DNA of 41,036 nt from a virus. Taxonomy: Duplodnaviria > Heunggongvirae > Uroviricota > Caudoviricetes. The notes under the pieces are model-generated. The model did no database searches and was not told the origin of the DNA. It saw only the letters and a list, made by a program, of their open reading frames with translations. Each line of letters opens with the position of its first letter. The first letter of the stretch is position 1. Below, piece by piece: positions 1 through 41,036 of the stretch. The stretch is from the IMG/VR virus record IMGVR_UViG_2778261637_000006. One strand, 5' to 3'. The position numbers were made by a program, and so were the translations under genes.

Positions 1-573
1 TTACATTTCAGGTTGCGTTATGACAGTCCCAACAGGGTGGTAGCGGTAGATCGTTGACAGTCCAATATCATAGATAATTGCCAGCCGCTTTCTGTCATAC
101 CCTTTCTGGAGCAATCTTGCGATCTGCTCATGCTGCTCCTTCGTCAGTTTCGGGCGACGTCCTCCAACTCTTCCTTGTGCTCGCGCAGCAGCCAGTCCTG
201 CCAGCGTGCGCTCAACTATCAGTTCACGCTCCATTTCTGCCAGTGCACCCATCATATGAAAAAAGAACCTTCCCATCGGAGTGCTGGTATCGATTGAATC
301 CGTCAGACTGCGAAAATTGACACCTTTTGCGCGTAGCTCTTCTGTGAGAGCAATGAGGTGTTTCATTCTTCTACCCAACCGATCCAGCTTCCAGACCACC
401 AATGTATCCCCTCTTTTAAGGCACTTTAAAGCGCGTTTCAGGCCTGGTCGTTCCGACTTGGTTCCGCTCATTTTGTCCTCAAAAATCTGTTCACATCCTG
501 CGCACATTAATGCATTGCGTTGCAAATCTGTGTTTTGGTCATTTGTTGACACACGTATGTAGCCAATCAGCAT
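1..573 (-). CDS. gin: Serine DNA invertase, Gin/Pin/Cin/Hin family
   Basis: 190 aa from internal Met MLIGYIRVSTNDQNTDLQRNAL; conserved resolvase catalytic Ser in VSTNDQ and C-terminal HTH; very close to the Mu Gin and e14 Pin sequences as recalled. The upstream 43 codons of the ORF track are rejected. Confidence 0.9.
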   Translation of the reverse strand: MLIGYIRVSTNDQNTDLQRNALMCAGCEQIFEDKMSGTKSERPGLKRALKCLKRGDTLVVWKLDRLGRRMKHLIALTEELRAKGVNFRSLTDSIDTSTPMGRFFFHMMGALAEMERELIVERTLAGLAAARAQGRVGGRRPKLTKEQHEQIARLLQKGYDRKRLAIIYDIGLSTIYRYHPVGTVITQPEM

Positions 574-628
574 TAAAAATACTCCCTTTTGAGTGGTTAA
601 AGTACTGAGATAATGTGGGGAGGATTTG

Positions 629-850
629 AGAGATAAACGTTGGTTTGGGGGAAGGCTCTGCACTGCCTGTTGGTGTGCCTGTTCCATGGCCCACCGCCAC
701 ACCGCCAGCAGGCTGGTTAAAGTGCGACGGGCGCGCCTTTACAAAAGAACAATATCCTGTTCTGGCCAGAGTCTACCCGACCCTCCGTCTTCCCGATTTG
801 CGCGGTGAGTTTATCCGTGGATGGGACGACGGGCGCAAAGTTGATACGGG
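629..850 (+). repeat. Copy A of a ~215-bp homology block shared by three tail-fibre cassettes; candidate gix/hix-like crossover core at about 629..654
   Basis: Near-identical to 1143..1365 and to the reverse complement of 2570..2784; the start contains AAACGTTGGTTTGGGGGAAGG, resembling the AAACC-NN-GGTTT core of Gin/Hin sites. Confidence 0.5.
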
Positions 851-6199: not shown

Positions 6200-6253
6200 G
6201 GGGGCAGTATTGCCCCCGTGCGGGAACGCTGATATTAAAGGCGTTTAAAAAGC

Positions 6254-12808: not shown

Positions 12809-12905
12809 GATTGTGCTCCTGTGTAAGTTCAGGGCAGTATGTCGGGAGAAGCGCGTGACGGATATTAAAGGAGATTAAGAAGAAGGGGCCGGAGCCCCTG
12901 TGATG

Positions 12906-18722: not shown

Positions 18723-18936
18723 TTTGCTGTCCCGCGTTATGTTGTCGGAGACAGTTTGTGAGAAATGCAGGCCCGGCGATTTTAATCTGCTTTAGAAAAC
18801 ATCAGGGGAGAAGGACAGGGAAAGCAATGCGGTGAACCGGAGGCGGTTATAAAACAGAGGCTGTAAAGCCTTTATAAGGGTAATACAGCCCCTCATTCGC
18901 TGGCAATGATAAATCACCCGCCTGAAGAGAGAAAAC

Positions 18937-26125: not shown

Positions 26126-26255
26126 GTGTGTCTCCTTGTCTGGTGGAGACAGCATCACAAATACAGGGCGCGAAGGATTTTAAAGCGCGTTAAGAGAGCC
26201 GGGGATACGGGATGTGCAGGATAAACGATGAATTATTCACAGAGGAGAATACGAT

Positions 26256-26999
26256 ATGACGCAGACACTGAATCCGGTCATCACTGTCACCGTGTCCGGT
26301 CCTGTGGGCAGCGGTAAAAGTTACATATTGGCGCGGATAGAGGAAGTGGTGAAACAGGAATTCGGGGGCAGCGTCATTGTCGATGCTGCAGACGTAGATG
26401 ATGAGCGGCGTATGAGTGGCGATGATCTGACGACCTGGCAGAAGCCACGGGGTGGCACAGTGATCAGGCTGGAGGAATACACGGGACAGGGCCTGTTGTC
26501 ATACGGCGAGGAGCGTATCTGTCGGACGAATGAGCTGCTGGATGTTATATGCCCCACGGGCCGGCAACCCTGGATACTGCCCGATGCACTGCATGCCACC
26601 ATTGCGGCACTGATGACAGTTTACGATCAGGAGCTGCTCATGAAGGAGCTACGTAAACTCACCGGTCAGCCAACAGAATGTTTTTCTGCCCCGAAGTACG
26701 GGAAACAGGAACACATCCCGGTGAACACGCTCCCCGTTAACCAGCCTCCCCGGTTCTTCGACGAATACATTCTGACACCGGAAAATAAAGCTGAGCACGA
26801 AGAGATCAAAGCGGCGTTGTTCCGGGAAATCAGGAAGATTGCTGAAATGCAACTGGGGGGCGGGCTGGACAGAGTGATGGCGAGAGGAGAATGGGAGTCG
26901 CTGTTTGAAAGAGTTTCCCCGGAATTACTTCCCCTCGCACTGGCTATCGGGATTATGCAGACAGCGGATAAACCTCACTTACGTTCATTAAACACGTAA
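26256..26999 (+). CDS. P-loop NTPase/kinase-like protein of unknown function
   Basis: 247 aa; Walker A VSGPVGSGKSY at residues 13-22, Walker-B-like SVIVDAADVDDE; GAGGAG SD; opposite strand to the adjacent late genes. Confidence 0.7.
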   Translation: MTQTLNPVITVTVSGPVGSGKSYILARIEEVVKQEFGGSVIVDAADVDDERRMSGDDLTTWQKPRGGTVIRLEEYTGQGLLSYGEERICRTNELLDVICPTGRQPWILPDALHATIAALMTVYDQELLMKELRKLTGQPTECFSAPKYGKQEHIPVNTLPVNQPPRFFDEYILTPENKAEHEEIKAALFREIRKIAEMQLGGGLDRVMARGEWESLFERVSPELLPLALAIGIMQTADKPHLRSLNT

Positions 27000-27379
27000 C
27001 GCATAATCCGGGATACGCATTCAGCGATGACTGCATTTTCACCGGTTTTTACTGCATCCAGAAGTGACTCTTTAAATGGTGCGGGCCGGGGCTGCAGAAG
27101 GGTCGGCGTGGCATTGAGCAGACGGAGCGTTTTTTCCGTGAGGACGACATCAGCCGCTCCCACAGCCAGCAACTGAGAGTAACGAATATAGCTGTTATCC
27201 CGAAGCCATATCAGCGTATCAATAAAATACCGGCACTTTTTCTGGTCGTGATCAACCTGGTCCGGGATATCGAAAAAACCAGAATAAATCAAAACCTGAG
27301 GTGCCGGATGCGTGTTCAGTAATCGGCAGAATATTTTGCCGGTGAGTGCATAAAAATCATCATTTAAGGAGTGCATCAT
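26975..27379 (-). CDS. Hypothetical protein (134 aa)
   Basis: Non-repetitive ORF convergent with the P-loop gene (25-nt overlap); no clear Mor/C-family HTH. Confidence 0.45.
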   Translation of the reverse strand: MMHSLNDDFYALTGKIFCRLLNTHPAPQVLIYSGFFDIPDQVDHDQKKCRYFIDTLIWLRDNSYIRYSQLLAVGAADVVLTEKTLRLLNATPTLLQPRPAPFKESLLDAVKTGENAVIAECVSRIMRYVFNERK

Positions 27380-27593
27380 GAATCCCCGATTAACGTTAAC
27401 AGAACATCAGCGCCGTGCTGAAGCAGTGAACAATGTTCTGGAAGATATTATCCGGTTACATCGCGGAGAACTGAGTGTCTGTCGTGCCGCTTTTCATTTT
27501 CAGGGAATACAAAAGCAGTTTGATACTTCTGTTTTTGCAGAAGGTATTACTTATGCCCTGGACCGGATAAGGTCAGAAAATCGCCCCGGATAA
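27378..27593 (+). CDS. Hypothetical small protein (71 aa)
   Basis: ATG with AAGGAG SD 6 nt upstream. Confidence 0.5.
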   Translation: MNPRLTLTEHQRRAEAVNNVLEDIIRLHRGELSVCRAAFHFQGIQKQFDTSVFAEGITYALDRIRSENRPG

Positions 27594-27784
27594 TCCCTAA
27601 ACCACATTAACAGAAATCCCACTATCCCTGCCGCATCATGAAAGAACGACCAGCCCGGTGCTTCGGACCCACCGGGCTGGCCATCGTCCCACAGAAGTGG
27701 CTGTGAGCCGACCGAGGTTCAGTCAGTCTCGCGAGACCAGACTAGCCTGCCATATTTTTAATAATTGTAAAAGGCTTACAGATT

Positions 27785-28549
27785 ATGAAAATGAAGACAT
27801 TACCCATCGTTCCATGGATTGGTGGCAAACGTCGCCTGGCAAAACACATCCTGCCGCTGTTTCCGGCGCATGAATGTTATGTGGAGCCGTTTTGTGGGGC
27901 AGCAGCGCTCTATTTTCTTAAGACACCCGGCAAGATCGAAGTCATCAATGATATCAACGGTGAACTGGTGAATCTGTACCGGGTGGTAAAGCATCACCTG
28001 GAAGAATTTGTCCGCCAGTTCAAATGGGCGCTGGTCAGCCGTCAGATCTACAAATGGCTGCAGATCACCCCGGAAGAAACACTGACGGATATCCAGCGTG
28101 CGGCACGGTTCTACTACCTTCAGAAGCAGGCGTTTGGCGGCAAGGTGGCAGAGCACAGCTTCGGTACCTCCACCACATCCCCGCCACGCTTCAACCTGCT
28201 GCGTATTGAAGAAGAACTGTCAGCAGCACACCTGCGGCTTTCCAGAACAGTCATAGAACACATGGACTGGCAACAGTGCATTGAGCGTTATGATCGTCCG
28301 CACACACTGTTCTACTGCGACCCACCGTACCTGGGTACGGAAGGCTATGGTGTGGATTTTCCTGAAGGGAACTACTCGCGGCTGGCAGAGCTGGCCCGGT
28401 GCATCAGAGGAAAAATGATAATTTCGGTGAACGATATCCCACAGATGCGCGAGGTGTTCACTGGACTGAACATACAGACAGTGAACATCAACTACAGTCT
28501 GGCGGGGAAATCTACGCCGCGCCGTGAACTGGTAATCTGCAACTTCTGA
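27785..28549 (+). CDS. DNA N6-adenine methyltransferase, Dam-like
   Basis: 254 aa; AdoMet motif FCGAAALYF then catalytic DPPY (FYCDPPYLG) in the order typical of Dam-type enzymes. Confidence 0.85.
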   Translation: MKMKTLPIVPWIGGKRRLAKHILPLFPAHECYVEPFCGAAALYFLKTPGKIEVINDINGELVNLYRVVKHHLEEFVRQFKWALVSRQIYKWLQITPEETLTDIQRAARFYYLQKQAFGGKVAEHSFGTSTTSPPRFNLLRIEEELSAAHLRLSRTVIEHMDWQQCIERYDRPHTLFYCDPPYLGTEGYGVDFPEGNYSRLAELARCIRGKMIISVNDIPQMREVFTGLNIQTVNINYSLAGKSTPRRELVICNF

Positions 28550-28552
28550 AAC

Positions 28553-28585
28553 AAAACCGGAAAGCACAATGCTTTCCGGTAAACC
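28553..28585 (-). terminator. Hairpin between convergent Dam and repressor genes; likely terminator for the repressor transcript
   Basis: Perfect 10-bp stem ACCGGAAAGC/GCTTTCCGGT, 5-nt loop; on the minus-strand RNA followed by UUUGUUU. Confidence 0.5.
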
Positions 28586-28665
28586 AAACAACTTCCACTA
28601 TGTCACTGGCGATGTTTTCTGAAAGCATCCAGATCAACCACCTGTCCTTTGTGTCCAGGTCAAAA

Positions 28666-29004
28666 TCAGCCTGCGAGTTTGCTTGGTTTGGGTTGAATGA
28701 AGACTTTGCCGACCTCAAGAATTGCCCTCCGTTGTTCGGGGCTCATTTCGTCGAATGCATCCATTAACTCTTTCTTTTCTTGTGACACATAAGGTGCAAC
28801 AACAGGCTGACTCCGCACCCCAGTAACTACATACAAAATATCTACACCGATTTCTGATAGTGCAGATAACTGCACTGCAGTAGGAGAAGTGCGATCTTTT
28901 TCCCAATCAATGAAAGTTCTCTTTGCCACACCTATAGCATCAGCCAACCCTTGCTGTGTAAGAGATAGACGCTCTCTTTCTTCTTTAATACGTAACCCGA
29001 TCAT
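28666..29004 (-). CDS. Prophage repressor candidate, XRE-family HTH
   Basis: 112 aa from ATG at 29004; HTH LSLTQQGLADAIGVAKRTFIDWEKDRTSP; divergent from the early operon. Confidence 0.75.
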   Translation of the reverse strand: MIGLRIKEERERLSLTQQGLADAIGVAKRTFIDWEKDRTSPTAVQLSALSEIGVDILYVVTGVRSQPVVAPYVSQEKKELMDAFDEMSPEQRRAILEVGKVFIQPKPSKLAG

Positions 29005-29028
29005 GTGAGTTTTTCTGCACTCTTTAAG

Positions 29029-29057
29029 TTGACTGGTGAGGTAATCTGCACCATAAT
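29029..29057 (+). promoter_or_regulatory. Candidate sigma70 early promoter for the ner-like/transposase operon
   Basis: TTGACT (29029..29034), 17-nt spacer, CATAAT (29052..29057); AAGGAG SD 6 nt before ATG 29105. Confidence 0.45.
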
Positions 29058-29104
29058 CTATCACACATAAGGCAAACATCATTGCATCAACAAAGGAGAC
29101 AACG

Positions 29105-29293
29105 ATGACTGCAGAACAAGTCAAAGCTCTCTTCCGCCAGCGCGGGATCACTTTCACCCGCTGGGCAGAAGAAAACGGCTACAACCGCAATGAGGTATAC
29201 CGCGTTCTCAATGGGCAGACCAAAGCCCGTTACGGTAAATCCCATGAAATCGCCGTGAAGTTGGGGCTGAAATCAACAGCTCAGGCAGCCTGA
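29105..29293 (+). CDS. Ner/Cro-like small DNA-binding protein
   Basis: 62 aa, first gene of the early operon, HTH-like ITFTRWAEENGYNRNEVYRVLNG. Confidence 0.55.
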   Translation: MTAEQVKALFRQRGITFTRWAEENGYNRNEVYRVLNGQTKARYGKSHEIAVKLGLKSTAQAA

Positions 29294-29345
29294 AGATTTT
29301 GAGTCTTTGTAAAAGGTTATCACATATCGCAAAAGAGGTATGCAG

Positions 29346-29664: not shown

Positions 29665-30576
29665 ATGGGACGCACCAAATCACCGATTAACACTGAACTG
29701 AACGCCGAGGTACCGCTGTCGGATGATCTCAATGTCAGTCTGAACGCCATGACACAGCATCGTATGGAGATCATGCAGCAGTTTGGCGATGGTCAGCCCT
29801 ATGAGCGTGATCGCATAGTTCATGAGGCTCGGTTTTATATGGCACAGAGCGCTGAGGCCATGCTGGAAGCAGGTAAACGACTTATTATTCTCAAAGAAAA
29901 TGAACCTCACGGGGACTTTGTTGGAATTGTAGAAGAACAACTTGGTCTGCATGTGCGCGCAGCACAACGAATGATGAAAGCATCTTTGAAATACCTTTCA
30001 CCAAAACTAGAGCCAAAAGCGACAACGTTGTCGCTTTTAGGTAAGGCAAAATTATTTGAACTTGTTGCTGAAGATGACGACGACCTTGCTGAACTGGCCG
30101 ACGGTGGCACAGTTGCCGGACTGACGCTTGACGATGTTGATCGCATGTCAGTACGTGAATTGCGTCAGGCCCTGCGCGAAGCGCGCGAAACCAACGCAGC
30201 ACAACAGCGCGTACTCGCCGACAAAAATGAAAAAATAGACTCACTCTCCACCAGACTGGAGAAGAAATCCCGTATTCAGCCACCTGAGCCTGATGAAGAG
30301 GTGAAGAAACTGCGGGCAGAAGTGACCGCGTTAGCGGTTGAGGCGGAATCTGCCATCGCCGTTCGACTGTCCAGCGCTTTTGAGACGCTGTGCGCATATT
30401 GTGCTGAAAACATGATTGATACCCCCAGAGACTTCATGGCAGGCCTGGTCTGTCAACTGGAAAGCACAGCGCGTAGCCTGCGCTCCACATTTGACCTGCC
30501 GGACGAGCCAACAGGCAATGCAGCGCCTTCATGGCTGACTGAGCCGACGCCACAGATTAACGGGCTGGAGGCATAA
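29665..30576 (+). CDS. Hypothetical protein with acidic/coiled-coil middle
   Basis: 303 aa, AAGGAG SD; between the ner-like gene and the transposase. Confidence 0.55.
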   Translation: MGRTKSPINTELNAEVPLSDDLNVSLNAMTQHRMEIMQQFGDGQPYERDRIVHEARFYMAQSAEAMLEAGKRLIILKENEPHGDFVGIVEEQLGLHVRAAQRMMKASLKYLSPKLEPKATTLSLLGKAKLFELVAEDDDDLAELADGGTVAGLTLDDVDRMSVRELRQALREARETNAAQQRVLADKNEKIDSLSTRLEKKSRIQPPEPDEEVKKLRAEVTALAVEAESAIAVRLSSAFETLCAYCAENMIDTPRDFMAGLVCQLESTARSLRSTFDLPDEPTGNAAPSWLTEPTPQINGLEA

Positions 30577-30579
30577 CCA

Positions 30580-32349
30580 ATGAATGCTGCCCTGACTGAA
30601 CGACTGGTTTATGTCGCCCGCGCGGCACGTGACGCGGGGCATGGTAAACGCGGCGCAGTATACGACGCTGCCTGTGCTGAACTTGGCATGTCCCGCGCCA
30701 CTCTGCTGCGCAGGCTGAAGGAGGTATCTGTGACTGATAAACGCAAAAAACGCGCCGATGCCGGGCGCAGCGCCCTGACCCGCGACGAAGCCGCGCTGAT
30801 ATCTGCCACACTGCGTGAGGCCACCCGCAAGAACGGTAAGCGTCTCTATTCCATCGCGGATGCAGTGGAAACCCTGCGGGCTAACGGCTTTATATCCGCA
30901 GGCAGAACAGATGAAACCACCGGTGAGTTTTTCCCGTTGTCCGAAGATGCCATCAGCCGAGCCCTGCGTAACTATGGCCTGCACCCGGAACAACTGGATG
31001 CCCCTGCGCCGCATACCGAAGTGGCCAGTCTGCATCCCAATCATGTCTGGCAGATTGACGCCTCACTCTGCACGCTTTACTACCTGAGCAATGGACATAA
31101 AGGGCTGCAGGTGATGGACAGCGCGAAGTTCTACAAGAACAAGCCCGCTAACCTTGCCCGTATCGCCAGTGACCGCGTGTGGAGTTACGAGATTACCGAC
31201 CATGCCAGCGGCTGGATTTACGTTGAGTATGTGACGGGCGCGGAATCAGGTGAGAACCTGTGTTCTGTGCTTATCAACGCCATGCAGGAGCGTGGCGGCG
31301 CAGACGTGCTGCACGGTGTGCCGAAAATACTCTATCTCGACCCCGGCTCGGCAAACACCGCGGGTATGACGAAAAACATGTGCCGCTCACTGGGCATCGA
31401 CCTGATAGCGCACAAGCCGCATAACGCCCGCGCCACCGGACAGGTGGAAAAGGCGCGGGACATTATCGAACGCAAGCTGGAGCCGGGTCTGAAGTTCCGG
31501 CCGGTTCACAGTCTGGAAGAACTCAACGCGCTGGCCGCGAAATGGCGCAGCCACTTTAACGCCACGGCTGTTCACAGCCGCCACGGTAAAACCCGCACGG
31601 ATATCTGGCTGAAGATTACTGCTGAGCAGCTGAAAAAAGCGCCTTCCGTTGAGGTATGTCGTGAACTGGCTGTGGCGGCACCAGAACTCCGCAAAGTCAC
31701 GCCAAAACTTCGTGTCTCGTTCCGGGGCACTGAATTTGACGTATCAACGGTACCGGGCGTACTGGTTGGTGAAAAACTGATGATTACCCGTAACCCGTGG
31801 CGCAGCGATGTGGCACAGGTGGTTCTGACCGGTGAGGACGGCCACGAGACGTTCTTCCTGGTCGAAGAGGTCAGAAAGAACGAGTTTGGCTTTGCTGAAG
31901 GCGCGGCGGTATTTGGCGAAAGTTACAAAGCCCTGCCGGAAACCCCGGCGCAGATGGCGGCAAAAGAAACCGAAGCGCTGGTCACCGGTACAGACAACGC
32001 CGCAGATGCAGCTGCCGCACGCAAGGCGAAGGCGCTGCCGTTCGGCGGGCGGCTTGACCCGTATAAACATATCGACGACACCACACTTCCGGCCTATATG
32101 CCGAAGCGTGGTCAGGCCTCTGACGTACGCGGGCCGCGCACTGAACAACGTCCCATGACTTATGTGGAGGCCGCGAAAGCCCTGCGCGATAAGTTCAGCG
32201 CCAACGGCTTTACCTGGACGCCGGAACATTACCGCCAGTTAACGGCACAGTATCCGGACGGCGTACCGGAAGCCGCACTGGATGAAGTCATGGCCACGCT
32301 GACCACGCCGGCCCGCAGCAGCGTTATCAGTATTGTTAACGGCAACTGA
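30580..32349 (+). CDS. DDE transposase, Mu A-like (rve/integrase core)
   Basis: 589 aa; integrase-core-like region from about residue 150 (HVWQIDASL, ILYLDPGSANT); followed by B-like ATPase and Gam. Confidence 0.85.
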   Translation: MNAALTERLVYVARAARDAGHGKRGAVYDAACAELGMSRATLLRRLKEVSVTDKRKKRADAGRSALTRDEAALISATLREATRKNGKRLYSIADAVETLRANGFISAGRTDETTGEFFPLSEDAISRALRNYGLHPEQLDAPAPHTEVASLHPNHVWQIDASLCTLYYLSNGHKGLQVMDSAKFYKNKPANLARIASDRVWSYEITDHASGWIYVEYVTGAESGENLCSVLINAMQERGGADVLHGVPKILYLDPGSANTAGMTKNMCRSLGIDLIAHKPHNARATGQVEKARDIIERKLEPGLKFRPVHSLEELNALAAKWRSHFNATAVHSRHGKTRTDIWLKITAEQLKKAPSVEVCRELAVAAPELRKVTPKLRVSFRGTEFDVSTVPGVLVGEKLMITRNPWRSDVAQVVLTGEDGHETFFLVEEVRKNEFGFAEGAAVFGESYKALPETPAQMAAKETEALVTGTDNAADAAAARKAKALPFGGRLDPYKHIDDTTLPAYMPKRGQASDVRGPRTEQRPMTYVEAAKALRDKFSANGFTWTPEHYRQLTAQYPDGVPEAALDEVMATLTTPARSSVISIVNGN

Positions 32350-34356: not shown

Positions 34357-34452
34357 AAACAGCATATAAGCTATTTAAAACAGCCTTTTCTTTTTTATTC
34401 CGGCATCAGCGCCGTGGGCTTCTGCACGCCGGAAACAGAGGAGAATTAAATC

Positions 34453-34647
34453 ATGATATTTAAATGTATTCAGTGCGAGAGGGATATAACAGCCCTGCGT
34501 TTTCACAGCGCCATCGCCGTGATGTCCGGTAAGTACCACGTACCTGCAGTACGCGTCACCCTGGTCTGTCCGTACTGCAGTCAGCATTTTTCGGCAGACG
34601 TGCCCGTCATGGAATTCTCCCGCCCTGACAGGGAGGACTCGCAATGA
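34453..34647 (+). CDS. Small zinc-ribbon-like protein
   Basis: 64 aa with CIQC and CPYC pairs. Confidence 0.5.
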   Translation: MIFKCIQCERDITALRFHSAIAVMSGKYHVPAVRVTLVCPYCSQHFSADVPVMEFSRPDREDSQ

Positions 34648-36343: not shown

Positions 36344-36785
36344 ACAACGTCTTATCCAGCTCATTCATATTGCCCGTAATGAACTGGGTATGGATGAAGA
36401 CACCTACCGCCAGATGTTACAGGGGCTGACCGGTAAAGCCTCAACCAAAGGAATGGATACCACACAACTAAACTGCGTGCTGGAATCCATGAAAAGGAAA
36501 GGCTTTCGCGTTAAGCCTGCCGGAAAAGCCAGCTCCGGTTTACCGCTGGATAACCATCCGCAGTCCAGGAAAATCCGTGCGCTATGGCTTGAAATGGCTG
36601 CTGCCGGCATTGTTCGTGACCGTTCAGAAAATGCATTAGCGCGGTGGATCAAGCGGGAAACGGGCATCAGCGCCCTGCGCTGGCTCAGTACTGAACAGGC
36701 AAGCAGTGTTATTGAGAAACTGAAGAAGTGGCAGCGCAGAGCTGCGGGAGTCAAACATGAGCGACCTGAATCAGTTTCGAAGTAA
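36333..36785 (+). CDS. GemA-like protein (Mu gp16, DUF1018-like)
   Basis: 150 aa from ATG 36333 with AAAGGAG SD; immediately upstream of mor as in Mu. Confidence 0.6.
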   Translation: MMTKQRLIQLIHIARNELGMDEDTYRQMLQGLTGKASTKGMDTTQLNCVLESMKRKGFRVKPAGKASSGLPLDNHPQSRKIRALWLEMAAAGIVRDRSENALARWIKRETGISALRWLSTEQASSVIEKLKKWQRRAAGVKHERPESVSK

Positions 36786-37155
36786 AGGGCCGGAACTCCT
36801 GGTGGAGCTGGCACAGCATACCTCTGAGACCGTTCGCGAGATTATTGATATTGAGCCCGCAATTGCCGACCAGATTGGTCAGGCCGTCGCGAACCGAATG
36901 ATGCAGGTCTGGGGCGGGCAAAACGTTTATTTCCCGATGGGCATGGTATGGAAGGTCAGTCAGCGCGACCGGGAAATCTTCAGGGAGTTTAACGGACGCA
37001 ACCACCACGAACTGGCCCGCAAGTTTGGTGTTTCGCTTCAGTGGGTCTACAGCGTGGTTAAGCGGGTCAGAAAAGAAGAACTGGATCGGATGCAGGGCAG
37101 GTTGTTTGATGAAGATCTGCCAGAGGAGACGAAAGACGTTAACAAATCCAGATAA
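36757..37155 (+). CDS. mor: Middle operon regulator Mor (Mor/C family activator)
   Basis: 132 aa; C-terminal HTH FNGRNHHELARKFGVSLQWVYSVVKRVR matches the Mor pattern. Confidence 0.8.
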   Translation: MSDLNQFRSKGPELLVELAQHTSETVREIIDIEPAIADQIGQAVANRMMQVWGGQNVYFPMGMVWKVSQRDREIFREFNGRNHHELARKFGVSLQWVYSVVKRVRKEELDRMQGRLFDEDLPEETKDVNKSR

Positions 37156-38474: not shown

Positions 38475-41036
38475 ATGAGTGCAATAGAAAATTTCGATGC
38501 CCATACGCCCATGATGCAGCAGTATCTCAAGCTGAAAGCCCAGCATCCCGAGATCCTGCTGTTTTACCGGATGGGTGATTTTTATGAACTGTTTTATGAC
38601 GACGCAAAACGCGCGTCGCAACTGCTGGATATTTCACTGACCAAACGCGGTGCTTCGGCGGGAGAGCCGATCCCGATGGCGGGGATCCCCTACCATGCGG
38701 TGGAAAACTACCTCGCCAAACTGGTGAATCAGGGCGAGTCCGTTGCCATCTGCGAACAAATTGGCGATCCAGCGACCAGCAAAGGTCCGGTTGAGCGCAA
38801 AGTTGTGCGTATCGTTACGCCGGGCACCATCAGCGATGAAGCGCTGTTGCAGGAGCGTCAGGATAACCTGCTGGCGGCTATCTGGCAGGACAGCAAAGGT
38901 TTCGGCTACGCGACGCTGGATATCAGTTCCGGGCGTTTTCGCCTGAGCGAACCGGCTGACCGCGAAACGATGGCGGCAGAGCTGCAACGCACTAATCCGG
39001 CAGAGCTGTTGTATGCAGAAAATTTCGCCGAGATGTCGCTGATTGAAGGTCGTCGCGGACTGCGCCGTCGCCCGCTGTGGGAGTTTGAAATCGACACCGC
39101 GCGCCAGCAGTTGAACCTGCAATTTGGCACCCGCGATCTGGTCGGTTTTGGCGTCGAGAACGCGCCGCGCGGACTTTGTGCTGCCGGTTGTCTGTTGCAG
39201 TATGCGAAAGATACTCAACGCACGACCCTGCCGCATATTCGTTCTATCACCATGGAACGTGAGCAGGACAGCATCATTATGGATGCCGCGACGCGTCGTA
39301 ACCTGGAAATTACCCAGAACCTGGCGGGCGGTGCGGAAAATACGCTGGCTTCTGTGCTCGACTGCACCGTCACGCCGATGGGCAGCCGTATGCTGAAACG
39401 CTGGCTGCATATGCCAGTGCGCGATACCCGCGTCTTGCTTGAGCGCCAGCAAACTATTGGCGCATTGCAGGATTTCACCGCCGAGCTGCAGCCGGTACTG
39501 CGTCAGGTCGGCGACCTGGAACGTATTCTGGCGCGTCTGGCTTTACGAACTGCTCGCCCACGCGATCTGGCCCGTATGCGTCACGCTTTCCAGCAACTGC
39601 CGGAGCTGCGCGCGCAGTTAGAAAATGTCGATAGCGCTCCGGTACAGGCGCTGCGTGAAAAAATGGGCGAGTTTGCCGAGCTGCGCGATCTGCTGGAGCG
39701 AGCAATCATCGACACACCGCCGGTGCTGGTACGCGACGGTGGTGTTATCGCACCGGGCTATAACGAAGAGCTGGATGAGTGGCGCGCGCTGGCTGACGGC
39801 GCGACCGATTATCTGGAGCGTCTGGAAGTCCGCGAGCGTGAACGTACTGGCCTGGACACCCTGAAAGTCGGCTTTAACGCGGTTCATGGTTATTACATTC
39901 AGATCAGCCGTGGACAAAGCCATCTGGCACCCATCAATTACATGCGTCGCCAGACGCTGAAAAACGCCGAGCGCTACATTATTCCAGAGCTAAAAGAGTA
40001 CGAAGACAAAGTTCTCACTTCAAAAGGCAAAGCACTGGCACTGGAAAAACAGCTTTATGAAGAGCTGTTCGACCTGCTGTTGCCGCATCTGGAAGCGTTG
40101 CAACAGAGCGCGAGCGCACTGGCGGAACTCGACGTGCTGGTGAACCTGGCGGAACGGGCCTATACCCTGAACTACACCTGCCCGACCTTTATTGATAAAC
40201 CGGGTATTCGCATCACCGAAGGCCGCCATCCGGTGGTTGAACAGGTGCTGAATGAGCCGTTTATCGCCAACCCGCTGAACCTGTCGCCGCAGCGTCGCAT
40301 GTTGATCATTACCGGTCCGAATATGGGCGGTAAAAGTACCTATATGCGCCAGACCGCACTGATTGCGCTGATGGCCTACATCGGCAGCTATGTACCGGCA
40401 CAAAAAGTCGAGATTGGACCTATCGATCGCATCTTTACCCGCGTAGGGGCAGCGGATGATCTGGCATCCGGGCGTTCAACCTTTATGGTGGAAATGACCG
40501 AAACCGCCAATATTTTACATAACGCCACCGAGTACAGTCTGGTACTGATGGATGAGATTGGGCGCGGGACGTCCACTTACGATGGTCTGTCGCTGGCGTG
40601 GGCGTGCGCGGAAAATCTGGCGAATAAGATTAAAGCGTTGACGTTGTTTGCCACCCACTATTTCGAGCTGACCCAGTTACCGGAGAAAATGGAAGGCGTC
40701 GCCAACGTGCATCTCGATGCACTGGAGCACGGCGACACCATTGCCTTTATGCACAGCGTGCAGGATGGCGCGGCGAGCAAAAGCTACGGCCTGGCGGTTG
40801 CAGCCCTTGCGGGCGTGCCAAAAGAGGTGATCAAACGCGCGCGGCAGAAACTGCGTGAGCTGGAGAGCATTTCGCCGAATGCCGCCGCGACGCAGGTAGA
40901 TGGCACGCAGATGTCTTTGCTGTCCGTACCAGAAGAAACTTCGCCTGCGGTCGAGGCACTGGAAAACCTCGACCCGGATTCACTGACTCCGCGTCAGGCG
41001 CTGGAGTGGATTTATCGCTTGAAGAGTCTGGTGTAA
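38475..41036 (+). CDS. mutS: DNA mismatch repair protein MutS (host chromosomal)
   Basis: 853 aa, full length with TAA stop at 41034..41036; mismatch-binding N-terminus and Walker [10 protein letters not shown]; reads as E. coli MutS. Confidence 0.97.

Follow-up and report, generated by a model that had tools for sequence, protein, structure and literature searches.

Why does a prophage keep an intact DNA adenine methyltransferase (MTase) when a nearly identical enzyme has left no assignable mark on the methylome of the strain that carries it? The question is raised by a 41,036-nt stretch of DNA (IMG/VR record IMGVR_UViG_2778261637_000006; below, "the window" means the whole of this stretch), which consists of Escherichia coli chromosome with a BcepMu-like (Bcepmuvirus) transposable prophage and which encodes the MTase at 27785–28549. 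We favor, with slightly better than even confidence, the explanation that this is a late-expressed, translationally gated anti-restriction MTase, a functional analogue of the com-mom module of phage Mu that lacks com. Judged by its sequence, the MTase itself is already catalogued; what appears to be new is the regulatory architecture in front of it, including a conserved leader RNA, predicted to act as a switch, that is apparently undescribed. The initial annotation of this region described the gene and its neighbors correctly but missed both this RNA and a late-promoter-like dyad upstream of the MTase.

The gene starts at the first start codon past an in-frame stop (open reading frame [ORF] analysis), and its product matches Pfam PF02086 over residues 11–234 (E=5.9e-29; 102 bits, cut-off 22), PHROG 56 (E=6e-101), and the REBASE-derived type II MTase model in PADLOC (375 bits). 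The motifs WIGGK (W11–K15), FCGAAALYF (36–44), NDIN with D56, and DPPY (179–182) stand in the alpha-group order, that is, motif X (WxGGK), motif I (FxGxG-like), recognition region, and motif IV (DPPY), and by these motifs and family matches the protein is a member of the D12-class (alpha-group) N6-adenine DNA MTases. The complete enzyme first annotated from FCGAAALYF and DPPY is thereby upheld. Motif I reads FCGAA (F36–A40) here and FAGGA in Pseudomonas phage B3 and Burkholderia phage phiE125. The core motifs are invariant across 29 orthologs, and the ratio of nonsynonymous to synonymous substitution rates is 0.045–0.09 against the Klebsiella, Trabulsiella, Brenneria, and Citrobacter orthologs; a ratio this low means that the gene is under strong purifying selection and is no relic. 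Two solved structures (2dpm and 2g1p) give significant sequence matches, and an AlphaFold2 model has a mean predicted local distance difference test score of 51, from a shallow alignment (29 orthologs, all at least 85% identical). As part of the explanation as a whole, and with the same slight preference, we expect the encoded protein to be an active S-adenosylmethionine (SAM)-dependent orphan N6-adenine DNA MTase. Some records annotate N-terminally extended forms of 284 or 320 aa (e.g., L002, Escherichia phage PhiKM, at 29908–30762; P0001); these longer starts are probably wrong, because an in-frame stop precedes 27785 and the leader and Shine–Dalgarno sequence end at that ATG.

The closest catalogued relative, M.EcoMIV (EC958_1101) from prophage Phi2 of the E. 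coli ST131 strain EC958, is identical to the window MTase at 251 of 254 positions (99%; three substitutions). Its locus matches the window in its BcepMu-like prophage, gene order, and leader and differs in the insertion, the prophage adjoining mutS here and other genes in EC958. Forde et al. (2015) gave M.EcoMIV its name and classed it among the orphan type II D12 enzymes, as a predicted Dam homolog; they found its transcript to lie significantly below that of dam, could assign it no motif in the EC958 single-molecule real-time (SMRT) methylome, and pointed out that none of its homologs above 65% identity had a known recognition site (PMC4659465). In ST101 strains with Dam-like prophage orphans, the methylome showed only GATC and type I motifs. 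The low transcript level and missing motif in EC958 indicate that the MTase ortholog is silent in the lysogen. The earlier suggestion that the enzyme alters host methylation in lysogens is therefore contradicted for its 99% ortholog, and the methylation check once proposed on a lysogen has in effect already been run on EC958 by SMRT, with a negative outcome (PMC4659465). More distant relatives include B3 ORF48 (63% identity over the full length) and phiE125 gp27 (65%); on such comparisons the MTase belongs with these two and M.EcoMIV to one phage clade, which reaches Pseudomonas, Acidovorax, and Acinetobacter phages and many beta- and gamma-proteobacterial prophages.

A candidate basis for this silence lies directly upstream of the gene, where 190 nt are conserved at the nucleotide level across Enterobacterales despite differing flanking genes, and where most of the conserved sequence is predicted to fold into a structured leader (Table 1). 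From an alignment of 12 sequences, RNAalifold predicts 42 pairs, with compensatory changes in 16. Folding the window sequence to its minimum free energy (−70.2 kcal/mol, z=−3.3) yields the sequestor helix, which encloses a hairpin at 27715–27748 and a UUUU:AAAA helix at 27755–27772 and, together with the latter, buries the Shine–Dalgarno sequence AAAGG (27770–27774). The 5′ strand of the sequestor is also the 3′ strand of helix H2 (27701–27705 in both), so that the two helices are mutually exclusive. Double changes occur in 6 of the 9 sequestor pairs and at all 14 pairs of the long hairpin H1, which RNAalifold retains on alignment A3. H2 was tested on A3 as well: it is paired in 92.9% of cases compared with 79.6% for shuffles and 16–38% for slid controls, with AU exchanged to GC in 16 sequences and to UA in 17. 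G–U pairs make the structure strand-specific and so point to RNA rather than DNA, and the covariation of two mutually exclusive helices is the signature of a translational switch.

We built a covariance model, R1, from the 12-sequence leader alignment, in which the window sequence is a seed member. Of 86 loci, 73 have an R1 match to a leader ahead of the MTase or of com; the end of the match always falls ~15 nt inside the opening ORF of the cassette, be it com or, in loci that lack com, the MTase. The window scores 151.7 bits as a seed member (27638–27800), and independent loci score 83.7 (L030), 63.6 (L006), 35.5 (L005), and 28.0 bits (L010). Across the R1-aligned loci, 88.9% of cells are paired compared with 71.7% for shuffles and ~40% for slid controls, with double changes in 38 of 42 pairs, figures that come from a model-fitted alignment and are hence inflated; H2, which lies outside the model, is the exception. 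No Rfam 15 family matches the leader, a search of 27300–29300 at E≤1 having returned only a chance miRNA match, and R1 finds no match in the Mu com-mom region or in BcepMu.

When IMG/VR was scanned with a pattern derived from the leader, 101 of the 120 matches were followed six bases on by a gene of this MTase family; 17 of the remaining 19 were chance hits without a covariance-model match. The other two (L104:11762–11934 and L153:13673–13845) hold a genuine leader (49.6 bits) before a different adenine MTase, which is 64.5% identical to gp53 of Haemophilus phage SuMu, a com-linked gene at the mom position. From this position and from the Pasteurellaceae Mu-like phage that hosts it, that enzyme appears to be of the Hia5/Hin1523 type. 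A weak leader match also lies upstream of com in SuMu itself (L212, 2198–2351). Its presence before two protein families indicates that the leader is attached to a function, the late adenine-MTase cassette, and not to one protein lineage. We tentatively raise the possibility, to which we give appreciably less than even weight, that the leader is an undescribed and widespread cis-regulatory RNA switch, ligand- or protein-responsive, that gates the translation of phage anti-restriction adenine MTases and serves two enzyme families that are only remotely related, the Hia5 type and the clade of M.EcoMIV and B3 ORF48, from a position directly ahead of the MTase or ahead of its Com activator.

A second layer of control may lie in the promoter. 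Perfect TTAA-N6-TTAA dyads occur four times in the window compared with 0.18 expected, and three of them stand directly upstream of late operons, namely those for holin/lysis (26180), tail (12865), and baseplate (6235). At the late operons the dyad is followed by a 23-nt spacer and then an xAxxCT hexamer. A related dyad precedes the MTase, and at the orthologous position it is perfect in Brenneria, Photorhabdus, Xenorhabdus, Citrobacter, and Symbiopectobacterium. A sigma-70 scan of the plus strand upstream of the MTase found no consensus promoter, which fits activator dependence but does not prove it. The C protein of phage Mu recognizes a comparable interrupted 4-bp dyad, and we infer that the Mor-family activator encoded at 36757–37155 reads the TTAA-N6-TTAA dyads and switches the MTase on as one of the late genes. 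The MTase cassettes of phiE125 and B3 lie inside late gene clusters (lysis and tail, respectively), and in both the stop codon of a late gene precedes the leader, which implies late expression there too. phiE125 resembles the window in having the leader (35.5 bits), with its cassette after the lysis genes; it differs in being a lambda-like siphovirus that is not transposable and in having, instead of a separate promoter, an upstream late gene whose stop codon precedes the leader. Woods et al. are said to have found N6-methyladenine in phiE125 virion DNA in 2002. Six Paraburkholderia prophages (L061, L073, L075, L078, L086, and L087) carry a different palindrome, CAAAGTnACTTTGA, ~20–35 nt upstream of the leader, and its location at the dyad position suggests phage-specific activator sites before a shared leader.

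Could the gene instead serve the lysogen? As a lysogenic-conversion ("moron") MTase it would reprogram host expression or shield the chromosome from incoming restriction–modification (R-M) systems. It does sit in a variable inter-module slot, in which BcepMu holds unrelated accessory genes (gp18–20) and no MTase; the gene has an upstream region to itself and runs convergently to that of the repressor; and RNA of phi1026b gp27, likened to it by its annotation as a putative DNA adenine methylase, was measurable and moderately abundant in lysogen cultures (PMC2920897). We nevertheless regard a moron role as improbable, given that the 99% ortholog is poorly transcribed and has no motif in EC958, that the ribosome-binding site is sequestered in the favored leader fold, and that the cassettes of relatives are Com-linked and within late operons.

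The favored reading, a late and translationally gated enzyme, invites comparison with Mu com-mom, which combines a promoter dependent on a C/Mor-family activator with an RNA structure that covers the start region and inhibits translation (PMC3299994). An RNA structure that occludes the start is common to both, in the window a predicted one formed by the covarying helix on the Shine–Dalgarno sequence, and both modules would be late DNA-modification functions of a transposable phage, putatively so for the window. They differ in that Mom is an acyltransferase-fold enzyme whereas the window encodes an MTase, and in that Mu uses Com together with Dam/OxyR control whereas the window has neither com nor an upstream GATC cluster. 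In B3 and UMP151, as in 15 of the 80 genomic loci, the start of the MTase is overlapped by a short ORF for a Com zinc finger. The Com family PF10122 matches B3 ORF47 (77.7 bits) and the Com of SuMu (30.2 bits), and the remaining Com-like ORFs were recognized by a CxxC...CxxC pattern only. B3 (ORF47–ORF48) is, like the window, a transposable phage with a Mor-type activator and the same leader RNA (28 bits); there the Com gene stands between leader and MTase and the cassette lies among tail genes, whereas the window leader abuts the MTase directly. Upstream of the window MTase no ORF has the CxxC...CxxC pattern, and the one zinc-ribbon-like ORF of the window, a 65-aa ORF with CxxC-N30-CxxC in the early region (34450–34644, plus strand), was considered as Com and rejected for want of a PF10122 match.

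Further functional parallels are Hia5, Hin1523, and Nma1821 of FluMu-like prophages (Drozdz et al. 2012), Dam-related orphan MTases that occupy the mom position, are Com-linked, and are silent in lysogens; the com-hin1523/hia5 modules are arranged like Mu com-mom (PMC3299994). They form a separate sequence family, and non-specific activity has been demonstrated for those enzymes. We rejected the window MTase as a member of that family, since BLASTP against the Hia5-type protein of L104 aligns only the surroundings of DPPY (E=0.006), and B3 ORF48 is absent from the 1000 closest relatives that the Hia5 authors recovered (PMC3299994). These last two observations count against a special case of the favored reading, in which the window enzyme, like Hia5/Hin1523, has relaxed or no specificity and would be toxic if leaky, hence its tight double gating. 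So does the recognition hairpin (FGGK...FGTSTTSPP), which is kept throughout the MTase clade and suggests a defined DNA contact surface. This case gains from the same leader preceding a Hia5-type MTase (L104 and L153) and, more weakly, SuMu com, from the com-linked late position and lysogen silence of the Hia5 family (PMC3299994), and from the loss of the residues with which E. coli Dam (EcoDam) reads G:C pairs; on balance we think it quite unlikely.

Those residues bear also on what the enzyme methylates. In EcoDam, K9 and R124 read the G:C pairs of GATC; K9 helps with the first pair, R124 makes the first and most discriminating contact, and R124A loses fourth-base-pair discrimination (PMC4417163). 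In an ungapped alignment, EcoDam K9, Y119, N120, L122, R124, and P134 correspond to P10, F117, G118, K120, A122, and S132 of the window MTase. The description "Dam-like" therefore stands for family and presumed fold, the protein passing the TIGR00571 Dam-family model just over its cut-off (117.4 bits, cut-off 114.85), but not for the EcoDam equivalog NF008152 (68.3 bits, threshold 441) or for K9 and R124, which are replaced. With the solved GATC enzymes of the D12 class, E. coli Dam, T4 Dam, and DpnM, the MTase shares, by sequence, the fold family, motif order, and DPPY, but only about 25–30% identity, and the GATC-reading residues differ. From these alignments, the MTase is predicted to be a Dam-family fold carrying a different recognition hairpin, and its target is probably not read in the way EcoDam reads GATC. 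The literature assigns no methylation motif to M.EcoMIV or its homologs.

A GATC-specific "extra Dam", which would top up GATC methylation on fast-replicating phage DNA as in T4, P1, and Stx phages and would be invisible in Dam+ lysogens, is an alternative on which these data bear. The TIGR00571 match and the identity of the best solved relatives (DpnM and EcoDam, both GATC enzymes) speak for it, as does the conservation of a basic residue (K or R, position 120) two places ahead of the R124 counterpart; such an enzyme would also account for the lack of any extra motif in the EC958 and ST101 methylomes. Against it speak the replacement of K9 and R124 by Pro10 and Ala122 and of N120, L122, and P134 by G, K, and S, the EcoDam equivalog score, a prophage depleted in GATC, and the occurrence of homologs in Burkholderia phages, and we judge it unlikely, if still worth serious attention. 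In the prophage (window 1–38200) GATC occurs 109 times compared with 184 expected (ratio 0.59), most sparsely in the early region (15 compared with 30 expected), and is absent from the MTase promoter and leader (27594–27784); the depletion is uninformative on the specificity of the MTase because other palindromes, such as CTAG, are depleted too.

Nor does a partner nuclease accompany the gene. The three accessory ORFs between the lysis operon and the MTase gave no meaningful nuclease or defense match in Pfam, NCBIfam, or PADLOC, and clustering of flanking ORFs in 80 related loci showed the recurrent neighbors to be Com and phage genes for lysis, early functions, or tails, with no nuclease among them. 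The absence of an adjacent restriction endonuclease candidate, as first annotated, is borne out in both searches, and on this genomic context the MTase is an orphan outside any type II R-M pair. That it might be the modification half of a cryptic defense or R-M-like system with the upstream ORFs (26256–27593) is prompted by three uncharacterized ORFs lying directly upstream, the first of which (26256–26999) has a P-loop-like N terminus with weak matches to AAA_30 (E=0.005) and mad8 (E=0.0046). We consider such a system highly improbable, as no nuclease or defense domain reaches a meaningful E value, other genes replace the three ORFs in Klebsiella phage KP12, and none of the three belongs to an ORF family found repeatedly beside the MTase in the 80 loci.

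In the explanation we favor, the MTase would be a late-lytic function of the BcepMu-like transposable prophage, kept off in the lysogen at two levels, promoter and leader. Transcription from the late-type promoter would probably need the Mor/C-family activator. In the transcript, the favored fold would base-pair the ribosome-binding site (27701–27709 with 27773–27781, plus UUUU:AAAA), and the alternative 5-bp hairpin H2 would take the shared strand and free that site, making the leader a translational switch. Late in lytic growth, the enzyme would methylate replicated phage DNA before packaging, and the methylated progeny would be protected from adenine-methylation-sensitive restriction in the next host, a job parallel to that of Mom in Mu and of Hia5/Hin1523 in FluMu-like phages. 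Protection of phage DNA from restriction is, we infer, the most plausible role of the MTase.

Several observations weigh against this account. The window has no com gene, either ahead of the MTase or at any other place. The MTase dyad carries one mismatch and lacks the "ATC" found after the dyad at other late sites, and the −10-like CATCAT is a weak hexamer. Transcription of phi1026b gp27 in lysogens, as far as its annotation makes it comparable, and the inflation of the model-based covariation figures count on the same side. Without a trigger, moreover, the leader could simply damp translation constitutively.

The surrounding prophage is of a familiar plan, with late lysis, head, and tail genes running leftward from 26158 and early genes (DDE transposase, MuB-like ATPase, Gam, and the Mor-family activator) rightward from 29105. 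The MTase and repressor genes are convergent with a strong hairpin between them, both as initially annotated; the hairpin carries the tail TTTGTTTCAG on the minus strand, and because the T-run is on that side it reads as the terminator of the repressor gene, not of the MTase. DNA matching the MTase region is found in 556 of 5426 complete E. coli genomes (~10%) at varied insertion sites, and the closest phage record is Escherichia phage PhiKM (92.8% identity). Prophage genes end at ~37900, and the first host gene to the right, a few hundred bases on, is a complete mutS (38475–41036, plus strand; 853 aa, its five MutS domains all present). In DA33135 this prophage is inserted in gspL and in EC958 by ycaL, differing sites being what random transposition leads one to expect. 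A serine invertase of the Gin/Hin type (Resolvase and HTH_7; 1–702, minus strand), with the dyad at 416–429 inside it, adjoins the tail-fiber genes at the left end of the window, an arrangement that suggests an invertible tail-fiber segment as in Mu.

Table 1. Positions of the MTase gene, its predicted leader RNA, candidate promoter elements, and neighboring features in the window
Feature	Position	Strand	Remarks
Orphan D12-class N6-adenine DNA MTase	27785–28549	+	254 aa; ortholog of M.EcoMIV
Conserved structured 5′ leader RNA of MTase (predicted)	27644–27784	+	Roughly 140 nt; RNAalifold and covariance model
Leader helix H1, long hairpin	27644–27685 (27644–27660 pairs with 27670–27685)	+	Conserved apical loop
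Leader helix H2, anti-sequestor	27690–27705	+	CACAG 27690–27694 pairs with CUGUG 27701–27705
Sequestor helix	27701–27781	+	CUGUGAGCC 27701–27709 pairs with GGCUUACAG 27773–27781
Dyad CTAA-N6-TTAA upstream of MTase	27597–27610	+	One mismatch; candidate Mor/C-family activator site
−10-like CATCAT	27634–27639	+	23 nt after MTase dyad; leader begins ~7 nt later
Perfect dyads TTAA-N6-TTAA	416–429, 6235–6248, 12865–12878, 26180–26193 (−)		Pattern scan
One-mismatch dyad	18782–18795		Upstream of protease/scaffold gene
Mor/C-family late transcription activator	36757–37155	+	Pfam PF08765 (Mor), E=1.1e-43
Helix-turn-helix repressor gene	28666–29157	−	HTH_3 and DicA-like matches; RefSeq start at window 29124
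Strong hairpin between convergent MTase and repressor genes	28556–28580	−	11 bp; −17.6 kcal/mol; z=−7.0 compared with shuffles
Three accessory ORFs between lysis operon and MTase	26256–26999 (+), 26975–27379 (−), 27378–27593 (+)		PHROGs 3787, 2266, 4490

The target of M.EcoMIV-type enzymes is still unassigned after a decade of E. coli methylome work, even though about one in ten complete genomes, including ST131, carries such a gene. A late-type promoter combined with a switch that hides the ribosome-binding site would, if true, explain why methylome studies miss the MTase, and for practical purposes work on its specificity should express the ORF without the leader. One leader links three kinds of phage module, the com-less MTase, the com-MTase pair, and the Hia5-type MTase, and this sharing suggests that phages commonly regulate their anti-restriction methylation at a further level that has apparently gone undescribed. 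If the leader does act as a switch, its conservation in beta- and gamma-proteobacterial phages would reflect a shared signal that decides when phage DNA is methylated, for which a late phage factor, SAM/S-adenosylhomocysteine, and the kinetics of cotranscriptional folding are candidates.

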